A program made the position numbers and the translations under genes. A stretch of DNA of 62,485 nucleotides, counting the filler, from Vermamoeba vermiformis (lineage: Eukaryota): the NCBI GenBank assembly GCA_045837725.1. It is 8 parts of 8 records of this genome, joined end to end, with 100 filler letters (N's around TTAATTAATTAA, not from the genome) between each part and the next. Parts side by side here need not be neighbours in the genome. Positions count along the whole stretch, not along the records: positions 9,032 to 28,218 come from JBEWZL010000252.1; 7 more parts are not named here. One strand, written 5' to 3'. This document shows positions 11,158 to 37,259 of this stretch, in pieces (the stretch's first letter is position 1; each line of letters starts with the position of its first letter). The notes under the pieces are model-generated. The model saw only the letters and a list, made by a program, of their open reading frames with translations, was not told the origin of the DNA and ran no database searches.

Positions 11158-11214
11158 AGGAGTGTTTTGAAAAATTAATAAAAAACATCCATTTTACGCA
11201 CTCGTCATCAAAAC

Positions 11215-14760: not shown

Positions 14761-15255
14761 GTCCTAGTCGAAGTGGACCATCGTAAAACAAACGGCAGAC
14801 GCTCCGAACCCCCTGCAATCTGCCCCACGGACACGACCGATCTACTTCCACCTTCACCTGCTTTGAGTTGACGGATCGATTATCATCCCTTCCAGCCAGA
14901 ATGCTATGGGTTCGACCAAGCTTGTCCCAGCTCGCCGTTCAATAGTGCTAAACACCAATCACGACAATTGCACACGGAATTGAGTTCTGAGCCGGACAGG
15001 AAGAGAACCGTTACCCACTTGCCGCAGTAAAGTTTCGTCCGTCGTTCTGTTCTTTCGTGCGCTAGGTAAGCAGTCCGGACGAAAAGAAGAGAATTAATTG
15101 ACTTCGGAGCTGCCACGAGAGAAGCGCTTCCACCCACTTTTCTAAACTGCACGCTTTGTTTATCAAAGATTGTCTATTTAATTAATTAACCCACGTAACT
15201 CATACAATACACAAACAATATACAATATGCTACAAAACGGAAATCCAGACTTCCA

Positions 15256-16501
15256 TCAGCAGAGGACCACTTTCGGCATCGAATCTCGGACGATCGGGTC
15301 GTCTTTTCCGTAAACCACGTAAGGAGAGTCCCTGATTCGACAAACCAGCTTGCCCTCCTCGTTCCTGGACCAAAACGCGTCGAAGTCGGTGTTGATCGCG
15401 TCGAGCCACGAGTAGGCGGACACTTCCGCGCGTCTCAACATGCCCAGCCTCAGCTTGTTGCGGTATCGCTCCAAGGCCTTCTCTTGCTGGCTGGGCGGCA
15501 AGTTTTCGGAAATCTTCTTCCGGAACAGGCTCTCGAAGTGCGGCGACAACCCCGAGTAGTCCCCCTTTCGGTAGGCCTCCGTGGACGGGTGCAGGATGCA
15601 GTCCGGCAGTCTTTCGCCGGTCAGGGGATGGACGTGTCCCTGGCACTCGGAATCGCAGCCGTTTCGCCCGCTGTTGACGCTGTTCAGCTCGTGGGCGAGG
15701 TGCTCGTGGTTGATGCACATCTTGACGTGGCACAGGTGGCTCAAGTCCATCCTGGCCCTCGAGACGCCTGGCTCGACCACCCACTCGCCTTTCTCATCCC
15801 TGTCCCACTGAGAAGGCATGTCGTGCATGAACATGACGAGGGTGTGCAGGTGCACTCGGTACCTCATCCGGCTGTGCTGGATGCCGCACCAGCCGTAGTC
15901 TCCATCTGGCAGGGAGATGCCAGGCAAGAAGGCCACCATGGGAACGATGCAACCGGACTCCAGCACCACTGCGTGGTCCATCAATTGGTCGTACAGTTCG
16001 TCTCGGAGGTAGAACTTGGCGACCTGGGTGGGGAAGTGTCGAACCTCGAGCGCGGCCAGGTTGTACGTGGGCATCCTCTTCCTGAGGACTTGGGTGGCCA
16101 GCACGTCGGGCGCGTCCTCGGGCAGCCACAGCTTCACGTTCAGGTTCCTTTTCGGCTCCTGCAAATATTATCAGAACTGCAAATTGATGGTGGAATGAAG
16201 GAATTAAACAATTAAAATAAATTGTGCAATCAATATTGTTTATAATCATAGTAAAAATAAATTATGGTGAAATTTAAGAACATGTTTGATATTTACTTAC
16301 CACCAATGGAAAATAGAATTCTTCCATTTTAACTGTGCCTCCTTCAGCAATCTTGGTGGCCATCATCTCAAACTTTTTACCATAAAAGTCACCCCTCTTT
16401 GGAGCTGACCTGACCTGAGCAAGTTGTTTACTAATGCTTTTGAGATCTAAAAATATTATTTGGTTAGATCTGTAAGTTAAAGAATATTAGAACATACTCA
16501 T
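15256..16501 (-). CDS. His-Cys box / His-Me finger endonuclease (I-PpoI-like zinc-binding loop), 350 aa, 3 exons
   Basis: Motif DLSHLCHVKMCINHEHLAHELNSVNSGRNGC matches the SHLCH-x3-CxNxxHL-x-E-x4-N-xx-R-xx-C pattern. Exons 16498-16501, 16301-16446 and 15256-16158 splice in frame (MNLKSISKQL...FPLV|EPKRNLNV). Confidence 0.88.
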
Positions 16502-16846
16502 TACTGGTATGCTTGATGTTGAACTTGATTAAAATGAGCACAGAAAGTGAAAAAAAAACGGTTGGCAAAGTTGCAAATGCAAATATGCCATAAAATTTAT
16601 TTAACAATTAAACAAGCCATTTAATGAGGCATAAAAGACAGTGTGTGACATACCTTGGCCACAGATCAGGATCAGCATACTCAGGGCTCTTCCATCCAGT
16701 GACTCGTGTTGAGCGGAGCAGTGCGTGTCATTCGACTCACGCTCAAGCTCAGTGAGAGGCACCCGCCATATTGCTCTCGTGCAAATAACCTTTGATAAAA
16801 CAATATTAGCGTAATGCATTTGATATATTAAATGCGTTGGACATAC

Positions 16847-17437
16847 CTTTGGCACGATCGATGGAGAAGCCAGTGGCCTGTTTGAGATCGAGTCCCGTGG
16901 GTGACTTTAGATTGCCCGTGCTGAGGGAGTACTCGAGCTTGCTGCCGACATCGAAGGTCTTGTTCGAGCTGTTCTTGAAGTACATCTCGTCATGGATGTT
17001 CACTGCCTTGCCCTGGTGCAGATCCTTGGCGATCACTGCTTTGATGTTGCCGAGCCACTCCTGCAGTTTCTCTTTGAGCGTCAGCATCAAGTGTCCCGGC
17101 AGCAGCAGTTCTTGCGTGTTGGGCACATCCATTTGTCTTCGGCGCAATCACAGCTCACCAGTGCATAGAGCTTGCAGATCATAAATATGAGCATATTGAG
17201 CTTGTCCTGGTTGTTCGTCAGATGCACCAGCACGTATTTCAACAAGTGCTCGCCGATCTGCACATCGTCCAGCGCTTGGGCACGTTGTCGAGGGCAGTGC
17301 CGAATCGACTGCCAATGAACGCCAAGCACTGCTCGCGACTTTTCTGCCCTCTTTGTGTGACTCGCGCAGCATGCTCTCCACTCTGTATCGAGCTCGTGAC
17401 TTTTTGTAGTTGTAATCTGTATTTGAACAAAATGAAG
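16847..17437 (-). pseudogene. RPA2: Frameshifted internal fragment of RNA polymerase I second-largest subunit
   Basis: Pieces spread over three frames: EQCLAFIGSRF / VLVHLTNNQDKLNMLIFMICKLYALV / QELLLPGHLMLTLKEKL...GSKLEYSLSTGNLKSPTGLDLKQATGFS, recognisable as the Rpa135 signature region. Flanked by introns 17438-17483 and 16790-16846. Confidence 0.88.
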
Positions 17438-19956
17438 CTTTAGACAAATTAATATATCGTTATCTGAGTGTGATTACTCTTACCTGGCCCATCTGTGGCC
17501 AAGACACATGAAATTACCAGCAGTCAATCGGGCCAAAGATCCAAACGCAGCGTGTACAACATTTCGTAAGCTCTAATATATTATATTAATCAATATTAAC
17601 TTAACTAATAATATAATATAATATATTACTTACCTCGATGCGTATTTTGACTTCAGAAGCTGGTGCTGTTCGCAGATTCGGTGAAGATGGCACGAGATCT
17701 ATTTTCCAAGACTTCTAGACCTAAATAACGGCATTAAGTCATATATATTTATTCCTTTAATTTTAATATTTACTTACTGTTTATTTCAATGCGTCCAATG
17801 AATTCTAATTGATAAATATAATTCGACTCGAATTACTAATCCAATCTTGCCCTAGGCATTAACTGTTAAGAACTAGCACTGCACAGAGTCGTGGTGCGTG
17901 CTGTCTTGTAGTCAGTAATAATTATTACTGACTTAGCAATAAATCGACCCGTGTGGTCGATCTTTCAAAGTTGGATTTACAACGTGCATCATGTGATTGA
18001 TCCATGCCGCAAGCAACGAGATTGGATATCCATGCTTTCTTCGTCGAAGAAGAGTCGTGCCTTTGTGGAGCGCTTAAAATTAAGGCCACAAATCCTGTCT
18101 TCGTTATTTTAAATTCCAAACCGGATTGGCGGGGGTAGGTTAATTTCTCAGTAACGCGAGAGGCTACAGTGATGCCGTCTCGTGCAATGCGATCAACACT
18201 ATAATTTATATCAGGCAAGGGACTTACAAAGCATTGGTGTAACGTATTTTACATTTTTGTTTCGCATCGGGCACAAATCCCGAACGAAAGAATAAATTAA
18301 CGAAAGCACATCAATACGTAGTTTTGAAATAATACCTAGCTTTATTTTAAGTAAAAGATGCTTACCAAGCTCCTTACAGTAGCCTGCCAGCGGGTATGGC
18401 TGATCTCGAAATGATCCAGCTCCAGGCGGATCAACTGCCCAGCAAGAGTGGGAGCCGACAAATTAATCGTGTTCTACAATGGCAAGCCACGAAACCTTTT
18501 GTTGCCGCAGTTGTGGGCTGGGTAAACGGCACGTGCTCTGTAAATTGTAACGGTCAAATTTTCGCCTAACGCCAATCTCGCATTTTGGAGATTGTTTAAA
18601 TTTAATTTTAACGAACACAACACATCAAAACCAGCGTTGTTGGAGCATTGCTTATTTGAAATTTTACTTACCTTACTGAGTTGTGGTACCTCGTGGTCCA
18701 TGTAGTCCGTCAGAAGTTGTGGTGGTACGTTCCAGATGTTCCGGATCGTGTCGCGGGATCAAAACAACAATCAGGTTACTAAGAATGCTAATAACAATAA
18801 AATATTATTAAAAGTGTACAAATTATATTAAAAAGATAATTAGCTTACTGGACAATAGCTGTATTGGATTTCACATCGTGAATCCACTCGTGTTGCAGAT
18901 CGCATTTCTTTGTTGTATCGGAGTTTTCAGTCAATCTGCGAGAATAAAATAATTAATACCTATATTCCAAATGATTTTTTAGACTTACGTGTTGGCCATT
19001 TCACTTTTGACCGTAATTTAACCCTGTTAGACGCATCGCATTGACAGGCCAGTGCACGTAGAGTTGTTCAATCTGCGGCTATTAATCACTGCGCTATGAT
19101 TGGCTGACAGACTTACAAAGGGCGCGAACACCTCCGTGGTCTTGAGCAGTGCGTTGATGCGGTAGCCTGTGCCGTGCGTGCTCTTCAGATGCAGCCGAGA
19201 CAGCGCAATTTGCCGCCAGACATGATAGCAATGCACGAGGCCAAGACATCAGCCTCTTCCATTGAGTGCGTGGTCAGCAAGATGACGCGCTCTGTTCTGA
19301 TCGATTCAATCAAGTGTCACACCTCGCGCTTATCACTGAGTCAAAGCATTTCAAATTGCAAGCAATTTTCTATAATAAAAACGATTTCAGTACTATTATA
19401 AACTAGTATAAATGGTTAGTACTTATGCTGGATGCAATTGACTGAGCACCACCTAAATTCTATCAGATCGGATCCTGCAGAATCAATCCAATCATTTCGC
19501 TCATCGGTACGTTTCGAGCTATTATATAACGTGTTAGTAATAGCCACTGTCTGTTAATAGCAAAATTACCTGCCGGAATGAATCCATTAGTAAAGGTTTT
19601 CTCGCGAAAGTCAGCCATTGAGAGATCGAACACGCTGATTGACTTGCACTAAATAAAGTAGGTTAATATATTTAATACTTTAATTATAACTGCTATAATG
19701 GTTAATTACCGGGAATTGAGCATAAGTGCTCGGACATTCAGCATGAAGATCGGCTTCGCTAGCAGGTGATTGGGCAATTCCTGTTAAATTTAATGTTAAT
19801 ATGATATATTAAGAATATTTTAAACATTAATTTAATTTTGACACGAGCACTAAGCCCGATCCAAAAAAATTACATTTGTTAAATTATTCGCGTAGATTAA
19901 ATTTTAAAATGACGCGCTTCAACGTGTTTATCATTGTTATCACTAAATTACTTACC
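17438..19956 (-). ncRNA. Putative spliced non-coding unit(s), minus strand
   Basis: AT-rich GT-AG introns (17438-17483, 17573-17633, 17721-17777, 18779-18848, 18936-18988, 19519-19569, 19649-19709) around exons of 89, 87, 87, 79 and 71 nt; no convincing ORF. Carries the TCGACC-N5-GGTCGA hairpin at about 17944-17960. Confidence 0.5.
19117..19340 (-). pseudogene. Decayed fragment of an ABCA-subfamily transporter nucleotide-binding domain
   Basis: Translates KREV*HLIESIRTERVILLTTHSMEEADVLASCIAIMSGGKLRCLG, then after a frameshift LHLKSTHGTGY. TTHSMEEAD and LKxxxGxGY are ABCA hallmarks. Confidence 0.88.
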
Positions 19957-20228
19957 ATTTGCCATATTTTGAGGTGTCCATGTCCGTGTAAATCCGATCG
20001 TGCCGGCAAGATCTGCGAGAGCTCTGTTACGAGTAGTGATACCAAGCAAAACAAAGCATGATACAAGCGAAACAACGCAACAACAATTGCAGGCCGTTGG
20101 TGGTCGTGATCATGTGAAACAAAGTCAAAATAAAATTACAGCTTCGACATCCTTCATGTAATGCAAAAATCTGCGAATTAACGCGTATTTATTGTTGAAA
20201 AATTCTGCTAATTTATTACGCTAACACG

Positions 20229-20934
20229 ATGTCCCAAGAAGCAACACAGCCGTTGCCATTTACTCTCGCCAAACCGATCCGTTCTTCGGCCGATAGTCAA
20301 GAGGAGGAGGAGCATAGCGACAGTAGCGGAAGCTACATTGAGCCGTCTCAGAGGCCTCCAGTTTTTCCTCCGCTGAGTGACGACGAAGATCCAGATGCCA
20401 CAATAATACTTAACCACACGTCCCAGCAAACGCAGCAAGGCGATGGGGCCGACGAAGACAATTTTCCACGCCTAACTCCGGTGATTAATCGCTTCTTTCG
20501 TTTGATCGAATATGACCCACCGCCAACCCCAGAAAACGATGAACCTCTTGTGCCTTGCGCTGAAAGTGGCGTAGACGAGACTTTGCCGTACGAAGAGGAG
20601 GAGATCTCGTCCAAGATCTCGCAACAACCGGCAAAAAAGGATCCAGTGACGGAGAAAAAGGGTTCATCGAAGGCGAAGACTCTGGTTAAATCGAAGAAGG
20701 CACAAAAAAAAATCAAGGTAAAAAAGGAAGTAAAAAGAGAAACAAAGACTGTGCCAGAGACGACGCACGATGGTTTTTACCACGAGATCTTCGAAGAGAT
20801 CCCAGAATTACGCGTGTTTTCAGACGCCAGCGTGCTTCACTACGCTAGAAATCACTGGACGTAAGAAATATCGTTTTAGATAGTAATTATTGACTAATCC
20901 TTTTTTTATTGGGCCGCGAAGTCCGAAAAAGTAA
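20229..20934 (+). CDS. Orphan low-complexity protein (acidic N-half, Lys-rich C-half), 2 exons
   Basis: Long ATG-initiated frame, intron 20861-20921, ending WTPKK*. Confidence 0.65.
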
Positions 20935-21122
20935 AGCATGCTTCCTGCAAGTTATCTACTAACAATATTAAGGTATTAATAGACATAATACCCATTAACT
21001 TGTATAATCACCCTTAAATAAAGACCAATTTTAACTTGAATTCCGGGTACGAGACAGCAAATTTGCAATAGTGCGCCTTTTGTTTGCCGAAACAAGTATT
21101 GTTTGTTACGTTCCGCTTGCTA

Positions 21123-21975
21123 ATGACTGCATTTAACCCTATTTTGATTGATGTCGAAGACGACGATAATAATGTCGTTCAAATCGATGATAGTGCTGAC
21201 ACAACCAAAGCCGACGGTAATTACTGCATTATTTCTATCGTGTAACTGCTAATACGACTCAGAGCCAAGCCCCTTTGGAGCATTGTTTGTTATGTACGTG
21301 CATTGCACTTTAACATTTCGTGCTGATTACTGTATTTAGGTATCCGTTGAACAAAGTCCATCAGAGGCAAGTAAAACTATTTGTCGTGCTTTATTATTTA
21401 TTTTTTGTCAGCAACGTGCGTCAATATTTTGAGGACAGCGACTTGGGTGTATATTACGCACAAGATGCGAGAAATAGCGTTTATTTATCCTACTCTCTCG
21501 TGAGCATTTGGGTTGGAGAAAAGCATTCTCTGACATTTTTTAATCGAATCTACCAAGTTGATTGCTCCAGATCTGGTGGCAAAATGTGCAGCTTGCGCGG
21601 ATTCATGATTCACGATGTAAATTGTCTGATTGTCAGATGGTGCAAAGAACACGTAAGCATTGTTTCCGTACCAGCGATAATTATTAATTTAATTATTAGC
21701 CCGATCAATCCCTCAGTAAGAGAAGAGAAATTCGCGAACACATCCAAGACCTGGATTTGTTCAAATTTATCGGCGTGTACACTGGCGGAGGTGCGGATTG
21801 GCACATCATTCAAGTGCGTCAGTATTTTGTGGAGAAGTTGATGTCCATTCTCGAGAATGGTGGTATTTTACCGGATGAGTCGGATCTGCCTCCTCGTTAT
21901 GTGCACGAGGCCCGCGAGCAATACCAGCGTCAGCAGATGGAAATGGAAATGCAAATTGAGACTCAGGATGAGTAA
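21123..21975 (+). CDS. Orphan protein, 4 exons
   Basis: Exons 21123-21216, 21263-21293, 21340-21652 and 21700-21975 splice in frame (MTAFNPILIDV...YPLNK...WCKEH|PDQSL...ETQDE*); AATAAA follows. Confidence 0.75.
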
Positions 21976-22444
21976 TGTATTCGTTTAATAAAGGATTGTT
22001 ATTGAGATCAATTACGGTGATCCAATGCACGTTTTTCGCACCAGTTGCACGTAATAGCTCCTTACATTTATATCTTAATGTAAAAAAATTGTTTCTAACT
22101 CATAAAATTAAATAATCACGACCAATGTTCTGAAATCCGGGTATTTAACTTTTCGATCTGGATCGAAGCGTTAAATTTAACCGCCCTTTAGAATTTAAAG
22201 TTAAACAAGACCATATTTATATTGATTAAGACGGTTTAGATTTGATAACAATGGACTTTAAACTCTAATTTCCTCGGGGACTTTTTCGATCTGGATCAAA
22301 CATGCTCTATTGAAAGCGACCATTGTTACAGCTACATTTTGTTTGATTTTGTAACTCATCAATGCAAAAATTAGGCGGAAATTCAAACGTTCCCTCGATC
22401 AGACCGCAAAACGATAAAGCACTAGTTGATCCAAAGCACCTCAT

Positions 22445-22466
22445 GGGTTAGGGGTAGGGGTTAGGG
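22445..22466 (+). repeat. Interstitial degenerate telomeric repeats
   Basis: GGGTTAGGGGTAGGGGTTAGGG, same orientation as the terminal telomere. Confidence 0.6.
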
Positions 22467-22563
22467 CGGGATGGTGGTAGGTGTTGGTGAGAATTAACTT
22501 ATTGATAGGTGTTTGGTGAACGAAACTCGATCGGGAACCCGTTACTTTCTCATCCAGTCACTA

Positions 22564-24263
22564 AAATCGACCACAAAGGTCGAAATACTTGGGTTATTAC
22601 TTATCGATAATAAACAGCTGACAGTGACGCGCCACGGTCGTAATGGCCGTTCAGCGCGAGTTATTTGGATTAAAATTAGATGCGAACATAAATTATAAGC
22701 TCACATCAGATCGACCACAAGGGTCGATTTATTGTTATTAACAATGTTAACGTTAATGATCAACACGCGCCAAACGACATTCAGCGTCGTTGCAGCGCGA
22801 GACTCAGAGCGCAATCTGAAGTCGTGCGAATCTCGGAGCAGTGACCGAGATTATTGAAGGTAATACTTTTTATAATATTTTCACCTATTATAATATTGTG
22901 ATATTGTAAATTCAATTTTTAAATATTCGGTTAAACTTTAATTAAATTATCAGATCGATCTTGTGCTTGTAATTTTTTGTTGAACGTTTTATTTATTATA
23001 GTACAGTATAATATAATTCATACGTGCTTGCGCGTGGTCAGTGTAAGCAGTGCTCTCAGACCCCAACTTGGTGGCACGATCAACTGCACAAGTCCGTAAA
23101 TACTTTATTAACGGTCAGTACTAACAAACCTCTTATCAGGATGTGTCAATGGTGTCCCTTGTTTTCGAAACGAACGGCCACGAATCCGGCGACCAACCAA
23201 AGATCCGCAACTATTTGCGAGTAGAAAATTAGCAGCCATCAATTGGTAAGTTAATGTATGCTTATTATTATATTACTGCTTACTAATATAATTAGAATTG
23301 TTACCTCCTCGCTTTTACCGCTGATCCGGCAGCCTCCTCGTTGATCAAGTTTATGCAATGTTGCGTGCATGGCTCACGCTAAACGTAAGTCACTTAGTTA
23401 TGTATATGTTGTTATGAAGTTATAACATTGTTTATTTGTTAGTACAAGGGTCTGAGGAAAAGATTAGTGAATTTGGTAACGCGCGATCTGGCGCGTTATA
23501 ATTTCTGTTAATGCAGTGATTAGCAGTCTAAGTACGTATAAAAACGGTCAAAACACTACCTTTAACATGATTGTAGGTTATTATGGGTCGCAGCGACCCT
23601 TGAAGTGCTTGAGTGAGATCGAGATCCGGCCTGACTCGATCCGTCAAAGTTTTAATACAGGGCATCAATCGCTCTAGAAGTAAGTGTCCCTTGTTAATAA
23701 TTATTCAAGCAATGCATTAACAATAATTATTATGTAGAAAAATGATGTGGAACTGGGGTCTGTAGATCACCCGTCGTACCATCCCGATCAGAAAGAAGTT
23801 GTTGGTGCGCATCGATCGCGCTGCAGGTAAGTGCAAACGGTTTAATCACATATTTTCAATGTTATAATAGTGTTTAGGCAGCAAATTGCTAGTAGGAAAG
23901 TTAACTGGTTCCTGCCGGCGTAATCTGACGGCGTAATTTTCAACTAAACATGGAACAAACGACACGTAAGTAACATAAAACGGTTTGAGAGGTCAAGTAC
24001 TAACATGTTATTATAACAGATTGGCTGAAATCGCCAATAGTACGAATACATGCAATCCGCAACTTGAGCGGATTCGAATCCGATAAAATACGCTAGCGGA
24101 GATTATGTAAGTTAATTTATTGGTTCATAATAATAAATATATATTTATTAACATGTTTACATAACCAGACTCGATGCCCATTCAATTTGCTCACGCATCG
24201 GGATTCATAGCTATTTTTAGAACGCATTAGGATCCCAGTAATTTAAATTGTAAAAGCAATAAA
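22564..24263 (+). ncRNA. Putative spliced long non-coding unit 1
   Basis: Introns 23096-23139, 23246-23295, 23385-23442, 23532-23576, 23680-23737, 23827-23877, 23966-24019 and 24107-24168; internal exons of 106, 89, 89, 103, 89, 88 and 87 nt. Exon 23443-23531 has stops in all three frames; AATAAA at 24258. Confidence 0.7.
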
Positions 24264-24360
24264 GCTACTACTTGTACATTATAAAATTGATCAAAGTGCT
24301 CCTCGGACCTAACCACAAAGATCTGACAAAGGTCTGGTGTTAATTTTTTTAAACTTTGAC

Positions 24361-26359
24361 AGATCGACCATAAAGGTCGAAATACAATTGAACATTTGTT
24401 AATTAACAACAGCTGACAGTAGCGCGCCACGGTCGCAACGGCCGTTCAGCGCGAGTAATTTGGAAGTGCATGGCAGAGCTGTATGCGAATCCGTAGTTAA
24501 ACCGACCACAAGGGTCGAATTATTGCTAGTATTTATATTATTATTTATATTCAACACGCGTACAACGATAATCAGCGTCGTTGCAGTGCGGTGTAAAGAT
24601 CGCGAACAAAACGCGATCAAATCTCGGTGCAGTGACCGAGATAATTTAAGGTAATATTGTTAAATATCTTACCACCATTTATACTATTACAGCATCGTAA
24701 ATTCAATTTTTAAAATTAACTCGAAATTCAGATCCGGAACGAGCTTAGTGCTCGGATTTATCCGGATTTTTAATGTATAATTATTAAAATATACTAAGTG
24801 AAATATAATAACGCGTAATTTTTTATTTAGATTAGATTAAATTTACGAAGTTCGATGCGAGATCCCGACCAGAAATGGTCAGAACGTGATAGTTACATTT
24901 GTTTCGTTCGTGCCACGCCTTCATCACCCTCACAGCCACTCACGGACAAACTCCAACTTATGGCGCGTTAACCTACTAGTAAGTGATACTACATTACGTT
25001 TAACCTGATCGAGCTTTGTGCTCGTTTTTAAATCAAATTAATCCTTATTATCTGTAATAATAATGCCATTAATATAGAGAGATTATTCTAGCGAGTAATT
25101 CCGATCGTGAAGTAGAGCGATGAGATTACAAGTTATCTAAAACGGATCCAGATCCTTGACTTTGCGCGTCAACAATTTCCGTTTAACGAATAAGACATCG
25201 ATGGCAAGTTTATTTTAACAATTATAAAGACAAGTACTAACGTGTTGTATTAATAGGAGTGCTCCCATGTGCGTTCGAGCCCGATGAAGTTGATCGAGAA
25301 GTGCGGGCTCGATCCAATAAATTTTACTTCGCACGGCCGCGAACGCTAAAGAGTAAGTAAATTACATTATAAAACGTATTTAAAAATTATTTTAATACCT
25401 TTTTATTGTTTAGTTGGCCGATTACGCGTTAATATTGGACTTTGCACAATAATGGATCGGATTAGTAAACTGAATATCAGCGCGGTGGTCAATAGGTAAT
25501 TTACGCTTAGTATTTTATCTAATAATTATTAACTCTTTGATATTGCTAGAGTTGACGCGTGATTGCTTCATCGCAGATCCCTGTGGCCCTCGTTGATCCC
25601 TGAGTCAGACATTGCAAGAAAGTAAGCGTAAACCGCAAATAATAATATTAATGTATTAATATCATTTTTATTGAAGGTAGACAGCACAAGACTGACTTCG
25701 CGGATACGGTGCTGGGGTTGCGCAACCAACTTGAGATTCGCGATCTAACTACCAGCGTAATGATAAATAGGTAAGTTTATTTACACTTGAATATTAAAAT
25801 TAAGCAATTACTAACTACTTGTAGTAGTATAGTTAGAGTAAGGCGTAATTGCTTTCATCACCGATCCGCGACGGCCACGCACTGATCCCACGAACTGACT
25901 TAATAAAGCGCAACAACTGCGCTAAATGTAAGTAGTAAGCATTTAATATGTTAATTATAACGTACTTATAGCACTTTTATTATAGGATGATCGCACGAGA
26001 AAAACTTAACGGATCCAGGACACGCGATCTAACAGCGCTCAAATCTGGTAGTAATACGAAGATGAAGGGATGTAAGTAATACAAAGCGATATTAGTATAC
26101 ACATACTAACTTTATTTACAATTAGGTAGCGTGAAATAAGCACTTTAATAGAGAAATGCGATCCGCAACTTAAGCGGATTCGCGAGAAGAAAAATCGTTG
26201 GCAGTGATTTGGTAAGTTAATTTATTATGAAACTTCACTTGTAACATATATATTAATGAATGCACTTGGTCAGTGTTTCGATTCATTGAGATTTATCGCT
26301 GATCCGCGATCGGCAACTCTACTGCCACGCACTTACACTCGTACTGTATATTAATACAG
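24361..26359 (+). ncRNA. Putative spliced long non-coding unit 2 (paralog of unit 1)
   Basis: Head 24361-24655 is homologous to 22564-22865. Donors at 24979, 25204 (GC), 25353, 25496, 25622, 25771, 25928, 26072 and 26212; exons about 72-103 nt. Exon 26126-26211 has stops in all three frames. Confidence 0.68.
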
Positions 26360-27150
26360 ATATCTTGACGACGAGATCGCTTTGCACACAAATGTAGTGA
26401 TCAAGCGCGTGCTCAATGTGATACTGAAGAACACGCAGCACGGCATTCACACTGGAGGAGCCTTGCGCGCAGTTACTGGTACGTATCGCGTGTCACATTG
26501 CTGCACTCGTTCTGACAGGTATCATTCACAGCCCGGCTGGACGTCAGAGATGAGAAGCAGTACTTGCAACAGCTGCTCGCACCGATTGATGCAGCTGACC
26601 GTGGATGACCTGTTAGGCCAAGGACGAGGACTTTGGGTACGTGTTCGAACGCTTTGCTGCAGTGCTCAAAGATGTGCACGAGTTCAAAGCTCTCACACAC
26701 ATGCCGGATCAGATCAAGCTGCAGCTGTATTGCCAGTGCCTTAATTCACACTGCTTGACAAGCAAATGTGTGATTGACGTGCCAAATGCAGTCGTGCAAG
26801 GCCGTGAGCGACGGCCTTGGTGCTGAAGCGAGTGCAGGCCAGTCCATGCATCCGAGGTCTGTCTGATAGGTGACAGATGCTTCATGCGCGAGCACCGTGT
26901 GGGCCCTGCACCCTCGCACACTATCTGCGCTGAGATGATAGGCTTGCTCAATGAACACAACGTCCTCATGCAGATCTTTGACATCAATTCGCACATGGAG
27001 ATGATGTGGCGCAGTGTGCCATCATGAAGTTCTTGGTGCGACGTTGTGCACTGAATGGCACAATGATCAATCGACTCTGGAGCTGTGTCGCGGTACGTAG
27101 CACTGGTGCGAGGGCTCCACGCTGATCCCCAAGTCTTAATTGATGCCTGA
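26360..27150. pseudogene. GC-richer, coding-like decayed fragment(s) of unidentified gene(s)
   Basis: Abrupt composition shift after the CAG at 26359; broken frames such as LDDEIALHTNVVIKRVLNVILKN and KDEDFGYVFERFAAVLKD. Family not recognised. Confidence 0.4.
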
Positions 27151-27560
27151 AAGTACAGGGATTTGTTAGTGTAGAAATGTTCTTTTAATGGAATTTAATG
27201 ATTTATAATAAAAATAGTGTTATTAGTTCCTTCTTTTACATTCTGTGGTTCTGGACTTCAACTGCTGTTATTTATTTGTGTATGCTCAAAATAAAGTCAG
27301 TCCCCTCCTTGTGAATTAGTCTGATTTGTTAAAATACTGCTAATTAAAATGCTGTTATTCAACAAAGAACTAATTTTAGTTATCCAAGTTTTTATTGACT
27401 GCGTAAAACAATCTCTTCACCAGTTCTGTATATTAGTTTCTACATGTCAGAAATAGATCATACTTAAACTGTAGTATGTTCATATGAATTGGTATTGATC
27501 CACGCCATATCCACAAAGATCGCATTTTATAGGATTTGGGGCTGGGGCTAGGATTTTTTC

Positions 27561-27744
27561 CCCGTACAGCACACTGTACACCCACTCGCACCCCCGTACA
27601 GCATGCTGTACACCCCTTGATGCCCCTGTACGGCACGCTGAACGCCCCTTCACACCCCCATACGGCACGCTGTACGCCCCCTCGCACCCCCGTACGGCAT
27701 GCTGTACACCCATCGCACCCCTGTACAGCATGCTGTACACCCCC
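27561..27744 (+). repeat. Subtelomeric tandem repeat, 6 units of about 31-32 bp with palindromic core GTACAGCATGCTGTAC
   Basis: Direct reading; perfect 16-bp palindrome in units 2 and 6, variants elsewhere. Confidence 0.9.
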
Positions 27745-28040
27745 TTGCAAACCCAATAAAGGAGCTGTTTGTAAAAACTAAACTTTATTTTACAATTGAC
27801 TGTCCAGGACCTTGGCATACAAAGTGTGAGCTCCAGCCAAGAAGGTGCACAGGTCCTGGACAGTGCAAGCCACCAACAAAGCATCCAAGTCTTGGATGGT
27901 GCAATCTACTCACCAAGCCATGCAGCACCAGCCAAGCGTCCAGGTTCTGGACGGTGTGAGCCACACTGAGCTGAGGCACAGCACCGAGGGAACCGTCCAA
28001 TAACTGGACGGTGGTACGCTGAAGGGACGGCACGGAGGGG

Positions 28041-28218
28041 TTAGGGTTAGGGCTTATGCTTCGCTTTTCAGGCCCCTGGATCTCTGACGAAATTTCACCG
28101 AAATTTCTTTTAGGGTTAGGGTTAGGGTTAGGGTTAGGGTTAGGGTTAGGGTTAGGGTTAGGGTTAGGGTTAGGGTTAGGGTTAGGGTTAGGGTTAGGGT
28201 TGAGGGTTAGGGTTAGGG
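28041..28218 (+). repeat. Telomeric (TTAGGG)n, probable chromosome end
   Basis: Two repeats at 28041-28052, a 57-bp non-telomeric insert, then 18 repeats (one TTGAGGG variant) at 28110-28218 running to the contig end. Confidence 0.95.
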
Positions 28219-28318
28219 NNNNNNNNNNNNNNNNNNNNNNNNNNNNNNNNNNNNNNNNNNNNTTAATTAATTAANNNNNNNNNNNNNNNNNNNNNNNNNN
28301 NNNNNNNNNNNNNNNNNN
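28219..28318. other. Artificial contig linker
   Basis: Same 100-bp spacer. Confidence 0.97.
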
Positions 28319-28566: not shown

Positions 28567-31554
28567 ATGAGGCAGCTAGTCTTGGTTATTGCTCTATTTG
28601 TAGCCCTGGGTAAGTTGGGGCAAACAGCAGATCTGATGAAACATCCTTAGCATTCTGTTGCACGTAATGAAAAGTATTTAATTAGTGACAATTACTATGT
28701 AGGCTATTCCCAACCAACTATTAAGAGGGATTGGACGCAAGTTAACAATGGGACTGCAATTCCAGAGGGAAAGTTTTATGCCCCACCTCGAGGTGCTTCA
28801 TTTTCCGATGGTCGCTATATAATTGTATACACTATTGCAACAACCAACTCGGAATCGCTTGCTGTGGGTCAAATATTTAACGCGGACGGCTCAATAGCGA
28901 AAGCGGAATTCGAGCTGGATTCCAGTCAGCCAACCACATTTATATTTTCAGCTCCCAACGTTGTAGTTTTCAATGACGATACGTAAGATAATCACATGAT
29001 TTAGTTTCGCTCAATTAAATAATTATTTATCGAATTTCAGATTTTTGGTAGTTTTCCGGCAGGACTCTCAGCCAACGATTTGGGCAAGAAGATTTAATGC
29101 CGATGGTACTCCTGCTGCTGCATCATTTCTTGCATCCGACGATCAGAATTACCCCATGTTGAATTTGCTCGAGGTATCGACATCTTTGACCTTTAAATTC
29201 AAACTTCGTATTTTATTACCTTTAACATGACTCGCATGTACTTATCATGACCAGGATGGAGTAGAATTAGTGGGTTTTGCGGACAAAAGCTTTGCCATTC
29301 TTTATTTCAGCTCCGTTTCTTCCTGCGCAGCTTACGTGGCTCATGACTCTACTGATTCTAATATGTGGTCGTTTTGTGCATATGTAACTGAGGTAATCAT
29401 AAGCTTATCGCTGTTTATTCTGTTGCACGACCTGAAATTCCTTTTTTAGATGTCGGTTGCTGGTGCCATTGTTGGAGATCTTGCTCGGACGACTTCTTAT
29501 ATGGCCATAGAATCAATTAGTGTTGATATCAATCTCGTGCAAGCAACTCCAAGCTTCAGTAGCTTCAAAACAATTGCTTTAACGCCCGATAATGTTCAGC
29601 ATCCAGCGGAACCAGCAATCGCTCTGACTGGTAATATTCTTACCACGCTTTACAGTCTTGGAGATTCTATATCATGTGAGTATATTTAGCTGGAGTTAAG
29701 TTTATTTCTAGAACTCAAACTTACGGATTCGGATTCGATCAGTTGCCTCGACTACCTTGGACTTGGGACTTATCCAAGAGGGCGTTCTTTTCTCTGCAGT
29801 TAGCGGATCTAATTATTCAGCACCTGCTATTGTTGGTTTGAATGACGTGAGCACATTTATCGCCTACCGTTATGCCAACATCAGCGACAACTCCTTTCAC
29901 TTGGCTTGTACGTAAAACATGAAATTTCATTTCAAGGATTAAAATTTAATCATCTTTGCAGATCACACTGGTACTTATAGCTTCAATGGCGAACTTACTT
30001 CATTTTCTGCAAGCCCGATCCAGTACTCCAGTACGACTTTCGATTATTCCACATTAACTCTTATTAATCTGTCGTATAATTAGTTGCCAGCGATTTGCAT
30101 TATTTGCGGTTCTTTCCAATGCTTGGCGGTGATCTTCTTGTTGTCGCCAAAAATCCTCTGAGAGGTGACATTTGGCAACAAGTTTTGACGTTCTGTGGCA
30201 ACGGTCAACTCGAACTCAACGAGGAATGTGACGGAGGCGCCAACTGTGGTGCTAATTGCCGCTGTTTGTATGGTTTGACTGCATATCAAGGTACCTGCGG
30301 CTTACCGAATGTCGTACCTGTGCTCGATTGTGTTGAAACATCGAACAACGGTTACAATCTCCACTTCAGCTTTATCAATGAAGATACTGTTGCTCAGACC
30401 TTGCAACGTGGCAATGCAAATTTGTTCACGCCTAGCAATCTCGCTGTAAGTCTTTTGTCGGAAATTTCACCGAACCTTTCACACGTATTAGAAGACTTTG
30501 CTAACGTATGGTACTAACAATTTTTTATGAAAAGACCGACCGACCTCAACAGTTCGCCGTTGGTTCAACTTTGACTTATCCTCTCTCGCCCTATGTCACG
30601 ACAATCCCTACAACTGTAACTCAAATCAACTGGGTCCTGGGCTCGTACAACTTGACAGTTGATTTGACGAACATTACTGCGGTCTTGTGCCCGACATGTA
30701 CGTCAAAGTTGCGGACACACATATGATATCTTTATTGACACAATTTCATAACGTAAGCTCTTGGCTTCGTTGCGGATGTGATAACACCAAGTTACCTTGA
30801 TAACGGAAACATCTTCGGGGACAACTTTGCGCGAAGGTAAGCAAAGTCCGGTCTTAAACAACAAGTGTCTAATGATTGACTCTTTATGCAGGTACAACAT
30901 TTCTGTCGATCGATTGACGACTGAAGCGATTCAAACTGCCGGCCCTCTTCCCGTAAAACGGGCCACCAATTACAACAGATATGACGTTATAGTGACCATT
31001 GCACCTGCTAGTACGTACAAGAACCAGAGCCGTTTCATTTTGTCCACTGTATTAATAGCTTTTTAGATGAAACCGAAGCTTCAGAACCAACTCCGGCCGA
31101 AGCCGTTCAGTAAGATAATTTGATTATTTTGACACGCGTCATATGCAAAGATCCGATTTGAAGCATTATGATCGTTTACAGATCCAAGCGTGAAAAAATT
31201 CTAAAGTGACACGTGTCAACATGTAAATTTTTGCAGACTTTGTTCTGACGTTGATTTTCCTACAGATCAGCAGTCGGAGATTACAAGCGCAACAGCACGG
31301 AGGTTGACGAGGACTTGTTGCAAGGCTACGATCCCAACACGAACATCAAAAACATCACGCCGACACCAACAGGAGTTGAAGTGCGCGGCAATCGATATGA
31401 CTCGTCACCCAGCCCTCCTGCCAGCCCAGTCGCAAGTCCTACTGCACCGCCTGTGTCGAACACCCCAATAGCGGTCTCAGGCGCAAACACGATCGGACCG
31501 CAAAGCTTGATTATCTTTGCAGCGACGATTTTGTACTCTTTCATCGCGAACTAG
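28567..31554 (+). CDS. Secreted/GPI-like surface protein with Myxococcus-type Cys-rich repeat (multi-exon)
   Basis: Signal peptide MRQLVLVIALFVAL; IWARRFNADGT; CGNGQLELNEECDGGANC; S/P/T stalk; hydrophobic C-terminus. Confidence 0.75.
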
Positions 31555-31619: not shown

Positions 31620-34483
31620 TTAAACAAGTAAAAAGCCGACGATCAGTAACAAGAATTTGACCAACAAATTTTGACTTAATGAAGCAGAAGATGTCAATGC
31701 AGAGCCAGGTCCTCGGGAAGTACCAGGTACGTTCGGATTGTTTGGATTACTACTTGAAGGCGAGCCAGGGTTAGTACTGGAGGGTCCATTTGACGGATTT
31801 GAGATTGGCGTGAAGGTGCCAGACGGAGTGCGCGGATTCGTGTTCGGATCTGATCGAGTACCGCGAACTTCGGTGCCACCAGGTACAGGTGTCACTTCTT
31901 TGATGACGGTGCCAGGAGCGCCGGTCACTAGATCAGATTCAATTTGTGCTCGTTTAGTAGCGTTCTTATAGTCACTGAAGAGCGATCTAAATCGAGCGGT
32001 CAAATTAGCGTTCAAGTGTCAAAGTGTCAAAGTGTCAAAAGTGTCACTATTTTTGACGTACCCAAGTACATCCTTCGTCGCAGGCTGACCCTGTGTAGTA
32101 GCACCTACAAATTCATTATTATCATTCTATAGTGCGGGTTAAATAACTTACTGGAGATGGTAATTCGGATTAAAAAGCGATAAGGAACGGTGTCAGTGAT
32201 AGTATATTCCGCGTAACTCAAACGACTGATATCAACGCCGTACCTATACAACATTTTATATTAGTATCAGGCCAAGGATTCTTCTCAATATGTGAATCTT
32301 ACTTGTTTGCGAAATTTTGCACGATTGTAGCTGCGTTTGAAGTACTTGTTTTGCTAGCCACATTAATCGCAAATGAAGTCGCTAGAATTAACACGTTAAC
32401 CGCTATTCCAGTAATATCTCTATACACTTACAGTTGGAGCACATTAGCGCTGGATCTGTGATATCAACGGTCAAATTGTACGAGCCTAACTGCCACGTAA
32501 TAGTTGAGATTGAGAAAGGCACGGCAGTACTATACGGAGATGCGGGGTAGATAAGCGATTGACCGCTAGGGTACAGAGTAGGACGATCGGTCTATATAGC
32601 AGTTATCAGTTAGTTACTTCAAGGTCCAGATCTGGATCGGGATCTGCTTACAGCCAAATTTTCTGGAGCAAAATAATTGACCAATCCATAGTCAATGTTA
32701 TGATCAACAGCATCTCGGTTGTTAAAGCTGAAATAAACGACGTATCCAGTCTGTCGGACTTCAACACAATCCAACGAAGGTTCGACATTGGGATACGTGC
32801 AGACGCCATTGAAGCCGTAGAAACCAGCCAAACATCTGCAGTTCGTGTCACAGTTGGCACTGCCATCACATTCCTCCTCCATATCAAGCACGCCGTTGCC
32901 GCAGAAAGTCAAAACTTGTCTCATAACAGCTAGGGTCGAAGTGTCTTTGCCGACCATCACGATGTCCGAAGATCTAGGAAGCGCGGTCATGTATAGGCCA
33001 ACGATATTGGATTGCGCTGATAATTTTTCCTTAGTAATTGGAAGTTGATAAAATTTCATCGTTGCTTACCTGTGACTTCATCGCCCAAAGGTGCGACAAT
33101 AATTTGTCCGCTGGACGGAGTGTAGCTCGCCAATTGATCTACTCTGCGTTAGTACATTAAGTATATATAGATAGGGCCTACATACATCCGATAGAATTCG
33201 TGTTAGTGTTGATATTTGTTAGTCTGTATGCGACGAGGGTACTAACTTCGCTGATCCGCACAGTTCGAGGACTTGAGTAAAAGATAGAAGTAGTGCTTTG
33301 TTTAAAAAGATTTTGTCTGACACTTCCAGGCGCCGGGAGAGGTGGAATTACGCTAAAGGCTATAAAATAATGCTTCAGTGAATGGCGGAAAACCTATGAT
33401 ATTACCATAGATCGAGTTGCCTGCAACGGAGAAAATTGACATGGAGTCTTGAGCATTGACAAGAATGGAAGGCTCCGATAAAGTCATAGGATCAACCGTA
33501 GAAAATGCAAATCTCTGACTGTAGCGATTTAAGGCATCGGATCCAACCCCACCAACGAGCAAACCTCCCGAATCCGTTTCATGAGAGAAAAACACGTTTG
33601 TTGAATAAGAATCGTATACTAAACTAGCCTTTGGGTCCTATACTCAATCATATTAATACTATTTTCCAAGTAAATTAAAAACATACGGAGAGGGTACCAG
33701 AGTCGTAACATTGAGAAAAGATCTGGTTGTTGTTAGCATCGAATTGCACCACTGCAGCACCAGTACAACTACTAGCGGCTGAATAGACCATTGCAAAGCC
33801 ATTTAATCGAGTTGCAACAACTTCAATTGAATTCTAAAGATAGCTGTCAGATCACGTGCCTTGATTCTGTGAGCGAATCTTTAATAGTAAATGGCTTACA
33901 CCAGAAGAGGGACTAATATTAGAGTCGTAAGCATTGAACGAGGCACCTGCGGCTGTTCCGTCAGAATTAAACCGTCTGGCTTTAATTTGATCCGGATCTG
34001 AGTTAACGTATCTCCAAACTGCTAAAAATCTATAAATTACGCAATGATTAGCACTTATTGAAAGCAACATATTAATGTACTTACGAATCATCTTCGAAAA
34101 TAACTACATTTGGAGCTTGATGTATATCACCCGAAGCAACATTATCAGCCAAAGCAAATTCAGCTTTATATACGGTTCCATCTCCATAATAAATCTTGCC
34201 GACCGCATTATAATAAGAACCAGCTGTTTGGACCGTATAAACAACAACATAACGACCATCCGAAAAAGTTGCAACTCTTGGCTCAGTTTTACCGCTAAGA
34301 TAAAAACTGCCGCTGAGTTCGTTGATTTGTTCCCAGCTTGTCTTAATTGCAGGCTGAGCCATTGCTATAAAATAACCAGGTTTAGTAAAGAAACAGATTC
34401 CCTAATCAGGAGATCTACTTACAACTAAGGCCAAGTTGCAACAGCGCAACTATCAGTAACAGTATAGTAGAGCGTATTAACAT
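31620..34483 (-). CDS. Paralog of the preceding surface protein, convergently oriented (multi-exon)
   Basis: Signal peptide MLIRSTILLLIVALL; IKARRFNSDGT; CGNGVLDMEEECDGSANC; EVRGTRSD versus EVRGNRYD in the paralog; hydrophobic tail. Confidence 0.75.
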
Positions 34484-37159: not shown

Positions 37160-37259
37160 NNNNNNNNNNNNNNNNNNNNNNNNNNNNNNNNNNNNNNNNN
37201 NNNTTAATTAATTAANNNNNNNNNNNNNNNNNNNNNNNNNNNNNNNNNNNNNNNNNNNN
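37160..37259. other. Artificial contig linker
   Basis: Same 100-bp spacer. Confidence 0.97.

Follow-up and report, generated by a model that had tools for sequence, protein, structure and literature searches.

What does a locus produce when it carries many short introns with good splice signals and no reading frame through its exons? The question is raised by positions 22564–26359 of the window, the 62,485-nucleotide stretch of Vermamoeba vermiformis DNA analysed here, which is a chain of contigs with linkers between them. The locus lies in contig JBEWZL010000252.1 (9,032 to 28,218). Direct reading and scripted annotation show two tandem transcription units on the + strand, in which 19 short introns are predicted, 9 in unit 1 and 10 in unit 2.

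Unit 1 begins with a leader exon (22564–22859, +), delimited by its repeats and by alignment to unit 2; its 5′ end is unmapped. The leader consists of two sub-repeats of about 144 nt, each with a hairpin A (cores at 22567–22583 and 22711–22727) and a compound hairpin B (22628–22658 and 22766–22799). Hairpin C (22830–22851) comes after the sub-repeats and is followed by AAG/GTAATA at the donor. The array (22860–24168, +) contains 9 introns and 8 internal exons, placed by annotation and, at two joints, by a contig of run X1. The introns, at 22860–23001, 23096–23139, 23246–23295, 23385–23442, 23532–23576, 23680–23737, 23827–23870, 23966–24019 and 24107–24168, are 44–62 nt long except for the first, which is 142 nt. 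The internal exons are 94, 106, 89, 89, 103, 89, 95 (88 if the acceptor is at 23877) and 87 nt. The exon lengths listed in a first-pass annotation of this DNA match these, save that its 88-nt exon is 95 nt by the RNA-supported acceptor. The predicted terminal exon (24169–24275, +) carries AATAAA at 24258–24263; its end is unmapped, X1 coverage of the bin is 0, and read-through into unit 2 is possible.

Unit 2 opens with a paralogue of the same leader (24361–24650, +), identified by repeats and alignment, with hairpins A at 24364–24380 and 24502–24518, hairpins B at 24423–24453 and 24557–24590, and hairpin C at 24621–24642. Its array (24651–26273, +; annotation, one joint in X1) has 10 introns of 53–62 nt, apart from one of 180 nt and one of 99 nt, and 9 internal exons of 148, 126, 96, 82, 72, 94, 103, 86 and 86 nt. 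The last exon (26274–27300, +) enters a HEAT-repeat-like gene fragment and shows an AATAAA-like signal near 27292; its end is unmapped. An X1 contig spans 26789–27138 of this exon, and a last intron earlier placed at 26341–26359 is not credible at 19 nt, the exon continuing past 26359.

The internal exons of both units are mostly 82–106 nt long, and 6 of 17 are 86–89 nt. Donor-to-donor spacing is 139–150 nt in 7 of 8 steps of unit 1 and 126–157 nt in 7 of 9 steps of unit 2. The nucleosome core is 147 bp; since the 139–150-nt period is no longer than the core without linker, nucleosome phasing of the units is doubtful.

The splice signals of the units are far better than the chance level. A GTAAGT donor is present in 12 of the 19 introns, and the remaining seven donors are GTACGT, GTAAGC, GTAAAT, GTAATA (two), GTAATT and GCAAGT, the last in unit 2 at position 25204. 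A YTRAY motif is found 9–40 nt 5′ of the acceptor in 16/19 introns, and an exact ACTAAC 10–16 nt 5′ of it in 5/19. For comparison, GTAAGT occurs in 12 of 42 motif-predicted + strand introns outside 16000–28218, by a hand count of a rough set that includes false positives. The earlier claim of at least 17 near-consensus introns is borne out.

RNA evidence comes from a public run, X1, in the form of Logan contigs, the kind of the run being guessed as RNA. An X1 contig of 179 nt, with 0 mismatches, joins 23826/23871 and 23965/24020, and one of 254 nt, also with 0 mismatches, joins 24978/25078. Three of the 19 predicted introns, all GT..AG, are therefore removed in perfectly matching contigs; the other 16 are without joint coverage. 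X1 covers 13 of 30 bins, every one inside 22410–28200, and 0 of 10 bins across two apparently intact neighbouring genes. Three raw RNA runs chosen by species label (X3–X5) come from a related organism and gave 13, 14 and 22 reads matching the stretch, at 90–95% likeness, and next to nothing on neighbouring genes (one bin, depth 0.12, in X4). Because the reads are so few at this likeness and the neighbours nearly empty, these runs are uninformative on expression here, and their use is limited to showing related leader pieces. Their reads match hairpin A (22707–22738) and the final 39 nt of the leader at 90–95%, and lose the match exactly at donor 24650. Past the donor they show one main sequence, with agreement of 1.0 (8 reads) and 0.73 (5 reads), for which cis-splicing in paralogues fits better than trans-splicing. 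In comparison with spliced-leader RNA, the leader is about 290 nt long and has an AUUUGG motif upstream of the donor.

The spliced units encode no protein. As had been noted for some exons, stops occur in all three frames, in 12 of the 19 non-leader exons, with TAA, TAG and TGA all present; across the spliced products of the units there is no open reading frame, stops being found in every frame. Spliced paths free of stops reach 575 nt at most, compared with 1325–1586 nt in coding controls, and the best path in the units equals that of non-coding strands. The best-frame codon log-odds is −0.057 for the units, 0.175 for coding sequence, 0.140 for neighbouring gene fragments and 0.006 for random sequence. 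Other genes of the window have standard-code open reading frames of up to 763 aa; the 763-aa frame is lipase-like and has no homologue at E ≤ 0.001 among proteins of 419–1336 residues. Because the unit exons lack the codon bias still kept by neighbouring gene fragments, the units do not appear to be a freshly dead protein gene, in agreement with the first-pass annotation.

The leaders are strongly enriched in short perfect hairpins, and the remaining exons modestly so. Counts of perfect stems (6 bp or longer) are 11 in the leaders (1.5 ± 1.2 expected) and 9 in the other exons (3.8 ± 2.0 expected), compared with 11 in introns (9.8 expected) and 13 in coding controls (15.6 expected). Whole-exon folding z-scores average −0.47, with 1 of 19 exons below −2. 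An earlier description of the exons as structured therefore stands for local stems and fails for whole exons. Hairpin motif A occurs 5 times against 0.01 expected. A small hairpin element, of pattern CGRGCTTWGTGCTCG, is situated inside a long intron (24740–24754, +) and again at 25010–25024 (+) and 19844–19858 (−), in the sense of its own transcript, for 3 matches against 0.00 expected.

Over six hairpin families, 8 of 94 stem columns are variable compared with 13 of 46 loop columns (Fisher P 0.004), the hairpins having been chosen after being seen. Read on the sense strand, 7 of the 8 variable stem pairs still pair in every copy, all through G.U; in the antisense reading, worked out by hand, this is 1 of 8. 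No fully compensatory change is found within a hairpin family, with two or three copies per element. All 8 stem changes are transitions, so strand-biased mutation could mimic the sense-strand G.U pattern; transcription-linked C-to-T change is an example of such a process.

The composition of the unit exons is distinct from both coding and background sequence. CGCG is found 27 times (5.2 expected), GATC 40 times (14.3 expected) and GATCC 18 times (2.9 expected), and the CpG observed/expected ratio is 1.45 compared with 1.02 in coding sequence of equal GC content.

The leaders of units 1 and 2 align over 362 nt with 72.4% identity (E = 1.5e-47), and at about 72% identity between copies the stems are nevertheless almost invariant. 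Exon types recur between copies in changed order. One type, of 87 nt, keeps its start, length and consensus flanking splice sites at three loci with about 73–79% identity, the copy at 18935–18849 (−) being paralogous to exon 9 of unit 1 and exon 10 of unit 2. Only 12 of 253 exon pairs score above the 99th percentile of shuffles; the other 241 are below it and unalignable, thus most mini-exons lack sequence conservation from one unit to the other. Among intron pairs 4 of 171 exceed the 99th percentile, the best being the two first introns and a shared hairpin element. In a self-comparison of the stretch, the leader and one exon type alone repeat. A tandem satellite of about 145 bp was considered and rejected: in 22500–26400, Tandem Repeats Finder (minimum score 30) lists no repeat whose period is close to 145, and the 12 of 253 exon pairs give the same answer. 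With 5–7 mismatches, further contigs of X1 align to single exons or to pieces of the leader.

Searches of metagenome contigs gave 0 matches to the gapped leader pattern and 2 to the hairpin C pattern. One of the two lies in high-GC, bacterial-looking coding sequence and the other in an unrelated eukaryote-like contig, where its surroundings do not resemble the units. In viral contigs the 17-nt pattern of hairpin A had nine single matches, taken as chance.

The contig ends in a terminal (TTAGGG)n array of 15 or more repeats (28110–28218, +; repeat and sequence reading), followed by the linker of 44 N, TTAATTAATTAA and 44 N. The G-rich telomere strand points outward in its 5′ to 3′ direction, as it does where a chromosome truly ends, and since the array lies downstream both units point at the telomere, 1.8 kb separating the last mapped intron of unit 2 from the array. 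A degenerate telomere repeat, GGGTTAG in 3.3 copies (22445–22466, +; Tandem Repeats Finder), precedes the leader of unit 1 by about 100 nt and is probably the boundary of a terminal duplicated block. Adjacent to the telomere is a 32-nt tandem repeat of 6 copies with a palindromic core (27560–27754), and the rest of the contig consists of degenerate repeat arrays.

Pieces of broken genes participate in this region. The HEAT-repeat-like fragment at the end of unit 2 (26355–27027, +) is degenerate, with one in-frame stop and two frameshifts, the latter judged by eye from its relative P0001 and the open reading frames. P0001 is its sole relative (62% identity over 48 aa, E = 1.1e-10) and itself matches HEAT_SCC3-SA weakly (E = 2.6e-4, below the cut-off). 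For the pieces downstream of unit 2, Pfam gave nothing credible, and a PDB search with two of them gave no match or chance-level matches (E 0.17–0.25). Unit 3, on the minus strand (16790–17975), has a diverged leader with hairpin A at 17960–17944 and mini-exons of 87 nt (17720–17634) and 89 nt (17572–17484), followed by a frameshifted fragment of the RNA polymerase I second-largest subunit (17123–16848). This fragment matches residues 372–462 of 1174 of PDB 7aoc_B (E = 2.9e-15), and its closest PDB entries are fungal. Another minus-strand run (18366–19330) consists of an ABC-transporter-like fragment with a frameshift (about 19330–19117, read by eye from the translation) and then non-coding mini-exons of 84, 87, 116 and 172 nt. 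A His-Me endonuclease-like open reading frame (15256–16167) shows no link to the units. The view of the units as modular subtelomeric non-coding RNA genes thus holds in that they are non-coding, spliced, modular and subtelomeric, but they do not stand alone as genes, being part of a patchwork in which broken gene pieces also lie.

The architecture, the absence of coding capacity, the splicing of three junctions, the subtelomeric position and the presence of paralogues are established. To the reading that the units belong to a family of modular, spliced lncRNAs of subtelomeres, constrained at the RNA level, we give about an even chance. The two units would be tandem paralogous genes for spliced RNAs without protein product, situated within 6 kb of the end of a chromosome arm, transcribed towards the telomere and belonging to a multi-copy family with further copies elsewhere in the same genome. 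Transcription is presumably by RNA polymerase II, because splice signals and poly(A)-like signals are present. Each gene would start with a conserved, roughly 290-nt leader exon holding two sub-repeats of about 144 nt and fixed stem-loops, and continue with CpG-rich, palindrome-rich mini-exons of about 85–105 nt with near-consensus introns of about 55 nt between them. Mini-exon types appear to have been duplicated and reordered among copies, some arrays becoming fused to pieces of broken ordinary genes. Selection may maintain the splice signals and the sense-strand stem-loops, in which case the functional product would be the RNA itself or the act of splicing. The likeliest form would be a scaffold in which short hairpins that bind protein follow one another like beads on a string, acting at chromosome ends or close to them, as is proposed for telomere-directed lncRNA families of other eukaryotes. 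Counting against a functional reading are the ordinary whole-exon folding, the few copies per element and the many exon pairs that cannot be aligned, and the setting, a subtelomere crowded with degenerate arrays and pieces of broken genes, argues for tolerated junk.

A variant that we consider rather improbable takes the mini-exon itself as the functional unit. An exon size near 87–89 nt and near-consensus introns would be selected, because the repeated splicing events would matter, not the joined sequence. Splicing-dependent protein complexes might be densely loaded on a telomere-directed RNA, or else exon-sized linear or circular RNAs might be released; either route would mark or organise chromosome ends, with exon modules swapped between ends as cassettes. 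Such genes, if the reading is true, would form a new class among RNA genes, recognised by the size of their exons and the quality of their splice sites and not by sequence.

In the main rival reading, which we think less likely than the functional one, the units are a neutral by-product, a transcribed subtelomeric patchwork of old gene debris whose RNA has no function. Splice sites would survive by recent duplication, by gene conversion between ends, or because any GT..AG is used, such pairs lying in AT-rich spacers of an intron-defined genome. The broken RNA polymerase I, ABC-like and HEAT-like pieces in or beside the same transcripts fit this well, as do the interstitial telomere repeats that bound the block, the degenerate arrays of the contig remainder, the lack of conservation of most mini-exons between units and the ordinary global folding. 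However, true gene fragments keep their codon bias and the unit exons have no residue of it, their composition is unlike both coding and background sequence, and the leaders have diverged to 72% identity with stems almost invariant. Usable signals are present in all 19 introns although most exons have diverged beyond alignment, exon lengths cluster (6/17 internal exons at 86–89 nt), and leader pieces occur in a related organism's RNA. One leader type joined to different fragments, RNA polymerase I in unit 3 and HEAT-like in unit 2, could also suggest a mobile or capturing cassette, such as a gene-fragment-capturing DNA transposon (Helitron or Pack-type), in which leader and mini-exon array spread among chromosome ends and take up host gene pieces. 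Small hairpin motifs in several places and paralogous copies in the same organism are consistent with this, but near the units neither terminal inverted repeats nor target duplications nor a transposase were found, self-comparison showing just the leader and one exon type, the introns are no repeat family (4/171 pairs) and the His-Me endonuclease-like frame at 15256–16167 shows no link to the units; we regard such a cassette as very unlikely.

Equally, since unit 2 enters a coding-like fragment and unit 3 the RNA polymerase I fragment, the arrays might be the multi-intron 5′ untranslated region of a subtelomeric protein-gene family with a decayed or truncated coding part. The downstream pieces, however, are internal fragments of unrelated genes (polymerase residues 372–462 of 1174), unit 1 has no coding-like part and stops at a poly(A)-like signal ahead of the leader of unit 2, and nine or ten introns would be exceptional for such a region; we regard this origin as very unlikely indeed. 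Protein coding by an unusual genetic code, frameshifting or editing is close to refuted. One exon type can be read by eye as F-I-A/T-D-P with third-position differences, but all three stop codons are present, 12/19 exons are stopped in three frames, other genes of the window use the standard code over up to 763 aa, codon bias is not above that of random sequence and the best stop-free spliced path is at the level of the non-coding strand.

Several known RNA identities were also considered and rejected. With the gathering score as cut-off, Rfam gave 0 matches across the window, and at E up to 5 over 16200–26500 two chance-level matches, both outside the units. Telomerase RNA is rejected on the several copies and on a reading of the units in which no template-like sequence was noticed, mirtrons or miRNA precursors on stems of just 6–9 bp, and tRNA-derived exons on 0 ARAGORN hits. 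Host genes of snoRNAs such as GAS5 and UHG are multi-exon and non-coding, with conserved splicing and unconserved exon sequence; the units resemble them in having many non-coding exons and in keeping splicing while exon sequence diverges. However, 16 of the 19 unit introns are 62 nt or shorter, thus too short for a snoRNA, and the units have no Rfam match. Introner elements are intron-generating transposons with copies nearly identical to one another. The many near-consensus, regularly spaced short introns of the units recall them, but these introns show no mutual similarity beyond their splice motifs, and with 4/171 pairs above the 99th percentile of shuffles an introner-type family is rejected.

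TERRA contains telomeric UUAGGG repeats and is transcribed from a CpG-rich subtelomeric region towards the telomere, and the units likewise start in a CpG-rich subtelomeric region and run towards the telomere. We know of no many-exon spliced form of TERRA. No contig was seen to join the units to the telomeric repeat, over a compared stretch that ended at 28200, and the end of unit 2 is probably about 0.8 kb short of the telomere repeats. In the available portion of one report, the lncRNA-TARE of Plasmodium falciparum are multi-copy lncRNAs from telomere-associated repeat regions of many chromosome ends, always transcribed towards the telomere and with G+C above their surroundings (PMC4465157). 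The units are alike in being a multi-copy, telomere-directed subtelomeric lncRNA family richer in G+C than its surroundings; there is no sequence relationship, short-exon arrays with consensus introns are not described for lncRNA-TARE in that portion (PMC4465157), and the host of the units is intron-rich. Human DDX11L, as described in an extract of its report, is a transcript family from a rearranged piece of an ordinary gene spread over many subtelomeres, and the patchwork of the units also holds gene pieces (RNA polymerase I, ABC-like, HEAT-like) (PMC2705379). Unlike DDX11L as described there, the leader and mini-exon core of the units has no trace of a coding ancestor, and exon size is regular.

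A few organisms are known to have families of subtelomeric non-coding RNAs directed towards the telomere, and the functional parts of these RNAs are hard to define because the sequences evolve fast. This locus is unusually legible, with a strict order of conserved hairpin leader and then regular mini-exons with near-perfect introns, and the broken real genes alongside provide a built-in neutral control. If the constraint fails, the subtelomere of an intron-rich genome would readily yield well-spliced junk, a caution for lncRNA annotation. If splice sites, exon length and sense-strand stems prove to be constrained at all chromosome ends, this would show that splicing and a modular structure can be selected in a non-coding RNA, needing no sequence conservation, and would give a handle on how subtelomeric transcripts work.

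Units 1 and 2, which lie in tandem on the + strand within 22564–26359, are a spliced, non-coding, subtelomeric pair directed toward the telomere. They belong to a multi-copy family built from a conserved hairpin leader and shuffled mini-exons. Direct reading of 22000–27000 shows a common plan in both. Each has a leader of approximately 290 nt (22564–22859 in unit 1, 24361–24650 in unit 2); the leaders share 72.4% identity over 362 aligned nt and display repeat families D1–D3. After each leader, GC-richer exons (GC 0.36–0.53) alternate with AT-rich introns (GC 0.15–0.33), with 9 introns annotated in unit 1 and 10 in unit 2. The internal exons are 94, 106, 89, 89, 103, 89, 95 (or 88) and 87 nt in unit 1 and 148, 126, 96, 82, 72, 94, 103, 86 and 86 nt in unit 2. 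Donor-to-donor distances are 139–150 nt in 7 of 8 steps of unit 1 and 126–157 nt in 7 of 9 steps of unit 2. Introns of 44–62 nt make up 16 of the 19. The donor is GTAAGT in 12; the other seven are GTACGT, GTAAGC, GTAAAT, GTAATA (two), GTAATT and GCAAGT. A YTRAY branch motif is found 9–40 nt upstream of the acceptor in 16 introns, and the exact ACTAAC 10–16 nt upstream in 5. The first-pass annotation had closed unit 2 with an intron at 26341–26359, which at 19 nt is not credible, and the last exon extends past 26359. Nucleosome phasing, also proposed there, is unlikely in that form because the period is not longer than the nucleosome core.

Splicing is seen in X1, a public sequencing run stored as Logan contigs whose RNA kind is only guessed. 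Two junctions, 23826/23871 and 23965/24020, are present in a 179-nt contig and a third, 24978/25078, in a 254-nt contig; both contigs have 0 mismatches. Three of the 19 predicted introns are seen removed, all GT..AG, and the remaining 16 junctions are not covered by any joint. The first of the three, 23826/23871, uses acceptor 23870, making the exon first read as 88 nt a 95-nt exon. X1 covers 13 of 30 bins, every one within 22410–28200, and 0 of 10 bins over 19500–22409, the site of two apparently intact genes. This pattern is transcriptome-like, unlike low-coverage DNA, and X1 is therefore treated as RNA-derived; a processed DNA copy is formally possible as the source of the contigs.

Unit 1 and unit 2 encode no protein. 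Stops are dense in every frame of the spliced products, and 12 of 19 non-leader exons are stopped in three frames with TAA, TAG and TGA all used, in agreement with the earlier claim that neither splicing nor an alternative code restores a reading frame. The longest stop-free + strand path, from a dynamic programme choosing among many candidate introns, is 575 nt; the same programme gives 323–500 nt for non-coding strands and 1325–1586 nt for coding sequence. Best-frame codon log-odds, trained on long open reading frames of the window, average −0.057 over the 19 unit exons. The corresponding averages are 0.175 in held-out coding sequence (38 pieces), 0.140 in the gene fragments next to the units (14 pieces) and 0.006 in randomised sequence with the composition of the exons (500 sequences). 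Thus, by codon log-odds and stops, a recently decayed coding origin, which the first reading had argued against, is ruled out for the mini-exons, and the gene fragments beside them are recently decayed coding sequence.

One of these fragments is a coding-like sequence (26355–27027, +) entered by the last exon of unit 2. A search of 1.84 billion representative proteins gives it a single relative, P0001 (E-value = 1.1e-10, 48 residues aligned at 62% identity). P0001 is a HEAT-like piece of 145 aa whose SCC3/SA match falls below threshold. Compared with P0001 by eye, the open reading frames show an in-frame stop and two frameshifts. Two more transcription runs are found on the minus strand. In the first, a diverged third leader, with the shared hairpin at 17960–17944, is followed by 87- and 89-nt mini-exons and then by an internal fragment of the RNA polymerase I second-largest subunit (16848–17123). 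The fragment matches PDB 7aoc_B at residues 372–462 of 1174; fungal entries give E-values of 2.9e-15 (7aoc_B) and 4.1e-15, and the human match is weaker (1.9e-7). It is a pseudogene piece, as a frameshift lies just upstream. In the second run, upstream of the first, a frameshifted ABC-transporter-like fragment, read by eye, precedes mini-exons of 84, 87, 116 and 172 nt.

The rest of the contig consists of degenerate repeat arrays and a GC-rich His-Me endonuclease-like open reading frame (15256–16167, minus strand, 303 aa), directly downstream of the minus-strand unit. The latter matches Pfam PF05551 (E-value = 7.1e-8), the zinc-binding loop of His-Me finger endonucleases, and may be a mobile-element gene. 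A degenerate array at 9200–10280 repeats in tandem every ~67 nt, and the 14-mer GGCGCCACAGAGGT is kept in each of its units (approximately 17 copies, counted by eye); its reverse complement is also found at 11216–11229 and 11382–11395. A 64-nt repeat is present three times at 11531–11864, with spacings of 142 and 128 nt and an 8-bp hairpin, CAGGCAGG ... CCTGCCTG, in every copy. The region 12600–14800 is GC-rich (GC 0.50–0.54) and contains dispersed repeats, in places about 143–144 nt apart, that pair a GGGGGAGACCCCCC-type palindrome with the GGCGCCACAGAGGT motif. On another contig, two coding regions, 30080–30517 (+) and 31621–32944 (−), share in translation the cysteine-rich motif CGNG..EECDG..NC..NCRC, which suggests a secreted protein family.

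N blocks are found at 5704–5803, 8932–9031, 28219–28318, 37160–37259, 45295–45394, 49301–49400 and 59305–59404. Each consists of 44 N, TTAATTAATTAA and 44 N, a contig linker with six-frame stops. The window is eight separate contigs on linkers, and features flanking an N block are therefore not genomic neighbours. The contig bearing units 1 and 2 (9032–28218) ends in a (TTAGGG)15+ array at 28110–28218 whose G-rich strand faces outward; thus both units are transcribed telomere-ward. The last mapped intron of unit 2 ends 1.8 kb short of this array, and a degenerate telomere repeat (22445–22466) is situated directly upstream of unit 1. The interval from unit 2 to the telomere contains AT-rich sequence, six tandem copies of a 32-nt repeat with a palindromic core (27560–27754) and another short telomere-like island. 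RNA reads from X3–X5, raw runs of a related organism added by species label, match 27523–27559, just upstream of the 32-nt repeat.

Paralogues are expressed, since further X1 contigs align to single exons or to portions of a leader at 5–7 mismatches and have differing flanks. In one of them a leader hairpin and a copy of the 87-nt hairpin exon are about 31 nt apart, which would fit tandem-unit read-through with joint splicing, or a shorter spacer in that copy. The X3–X5 reads match at 90–95% and at only three places: hairpin A2 (the second hairpin A of the unit 1 leader, 22707–22738), the 3′-terminal 39 nt of the leader of unit 2, and the telomere-adjacent piece. Matches on the unit 2 leader end exactly at donor 24650, beyond which one main foreign sequence follows; 8 X5 reads agree on it at 1.0 and 5 X4 reads at 0.73. 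Such a divergence is what would be expected of a paralogue or orthologue that is spliced.

When 23 mini-exons are locally aligned and compared with shuffles, 12 of the 253 pairs exceed the 99th percentile, where 2.5 would be expected, and 7 exceed the 99.9th; the majority of pairs are unalignable. Three exon types recur. An 86–87-nt exon with a 7-bp hairpin is exon 9 of unit 1, exon 10 of unit 2 and minus-strand 18935–18849, with identical first bases in two copies and consensus flanking splice sites in all three. The GATCGAG/CTCGATC stem is shared, by eye, by unit 1 exon 6 and unit 2 exon 4, and a 17-nt motif by unit 1 exon 4 and unit 2 exons 6, 8 and 11. The order of types differs between units, thus exons have been duplicated and reshuffled. 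The introns do not form one repeat family (introners), with 4 of 171 pairs above the 99th percentile of shuffles; a small hairpin element is present in three long introns. A simple satellite and a snoRNA host gene were each tested as the identity of the units and rejected, and an Rfam search gave no known RNA family for them.

The exons had been described as structured. This holds for short perfect hairpins, while whole-exon minimum free energy is ordinary (mean z −0.47 over 19 exons, negative in 14, below −2 in 1). Perfect stems of 6 bp or more that close a loop of 3–12 nt number 11 in the leaders (1.5±1.2 expected) and 9 in other unit exons (3.8±2.0), compared with 11 in introns (9.8±3.0), 13 in coding pieces (15.6±4.5) and 2 in gene fragments (3.8±2.1). 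CGCG, GATC and GATCC are abundant in the unit exons, whose CpG o/e is 1.45; coding sequence matched for GC content has 1.02. In six hairpin families of 2–5 copies each, picked after being seen, variable columns are 8 of 94 in stems and 13 of 46 in loops (Fisher P 0.004). On the sense strand 7 of the 8 variable stem pairs are paired in every copy, all via G.U; on the antisense strand 1 of 8 would be (hand-derived). These few copies point to sense-strand RNA structure, although every change is a transition and a strand-biased mutation process could give the same pattern.

A limited literature search, from which absence is not implied, surfaced no description of non-coding exons of a regular ~87–89 nt separated by near-consensus introns, nor of exons shuffled like cassettes. 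By function and position the closest likeness is the Plasmodium lncRNA-TARE family (PMC4465157), which has many copies, is transcribed toward the telomere and exceeds its surroundings in GC content. By origin it is human DDX11L, a subtelomeric transcript family made from a rearranged gene piece (PMC2705379). Neither is related to the units in sequence.

Neutral transcription of subtelomeric debris is a lesser possibility. The small probability left over is shared by a mobile cassette that captures gene pieces, a multi-intron 5′ untranslated region that has decayed, and unusual decoding. Selection would act on the splice signals and the sense-strand stems, since all 19 introns keep good signals while most exons have diverged past alignment, since GTAAGT is commoner here than in motif-predicted + strand introns elsewhere in the window (12/19 versus 12/42, the latter a rough, hand-counted set), and since the stems are nearly invariant in a leader only 72% identical overall. 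Because of this probable selection a functional modular lncRNA family, to which we give about an even chance, is favoured over neutral transcription.
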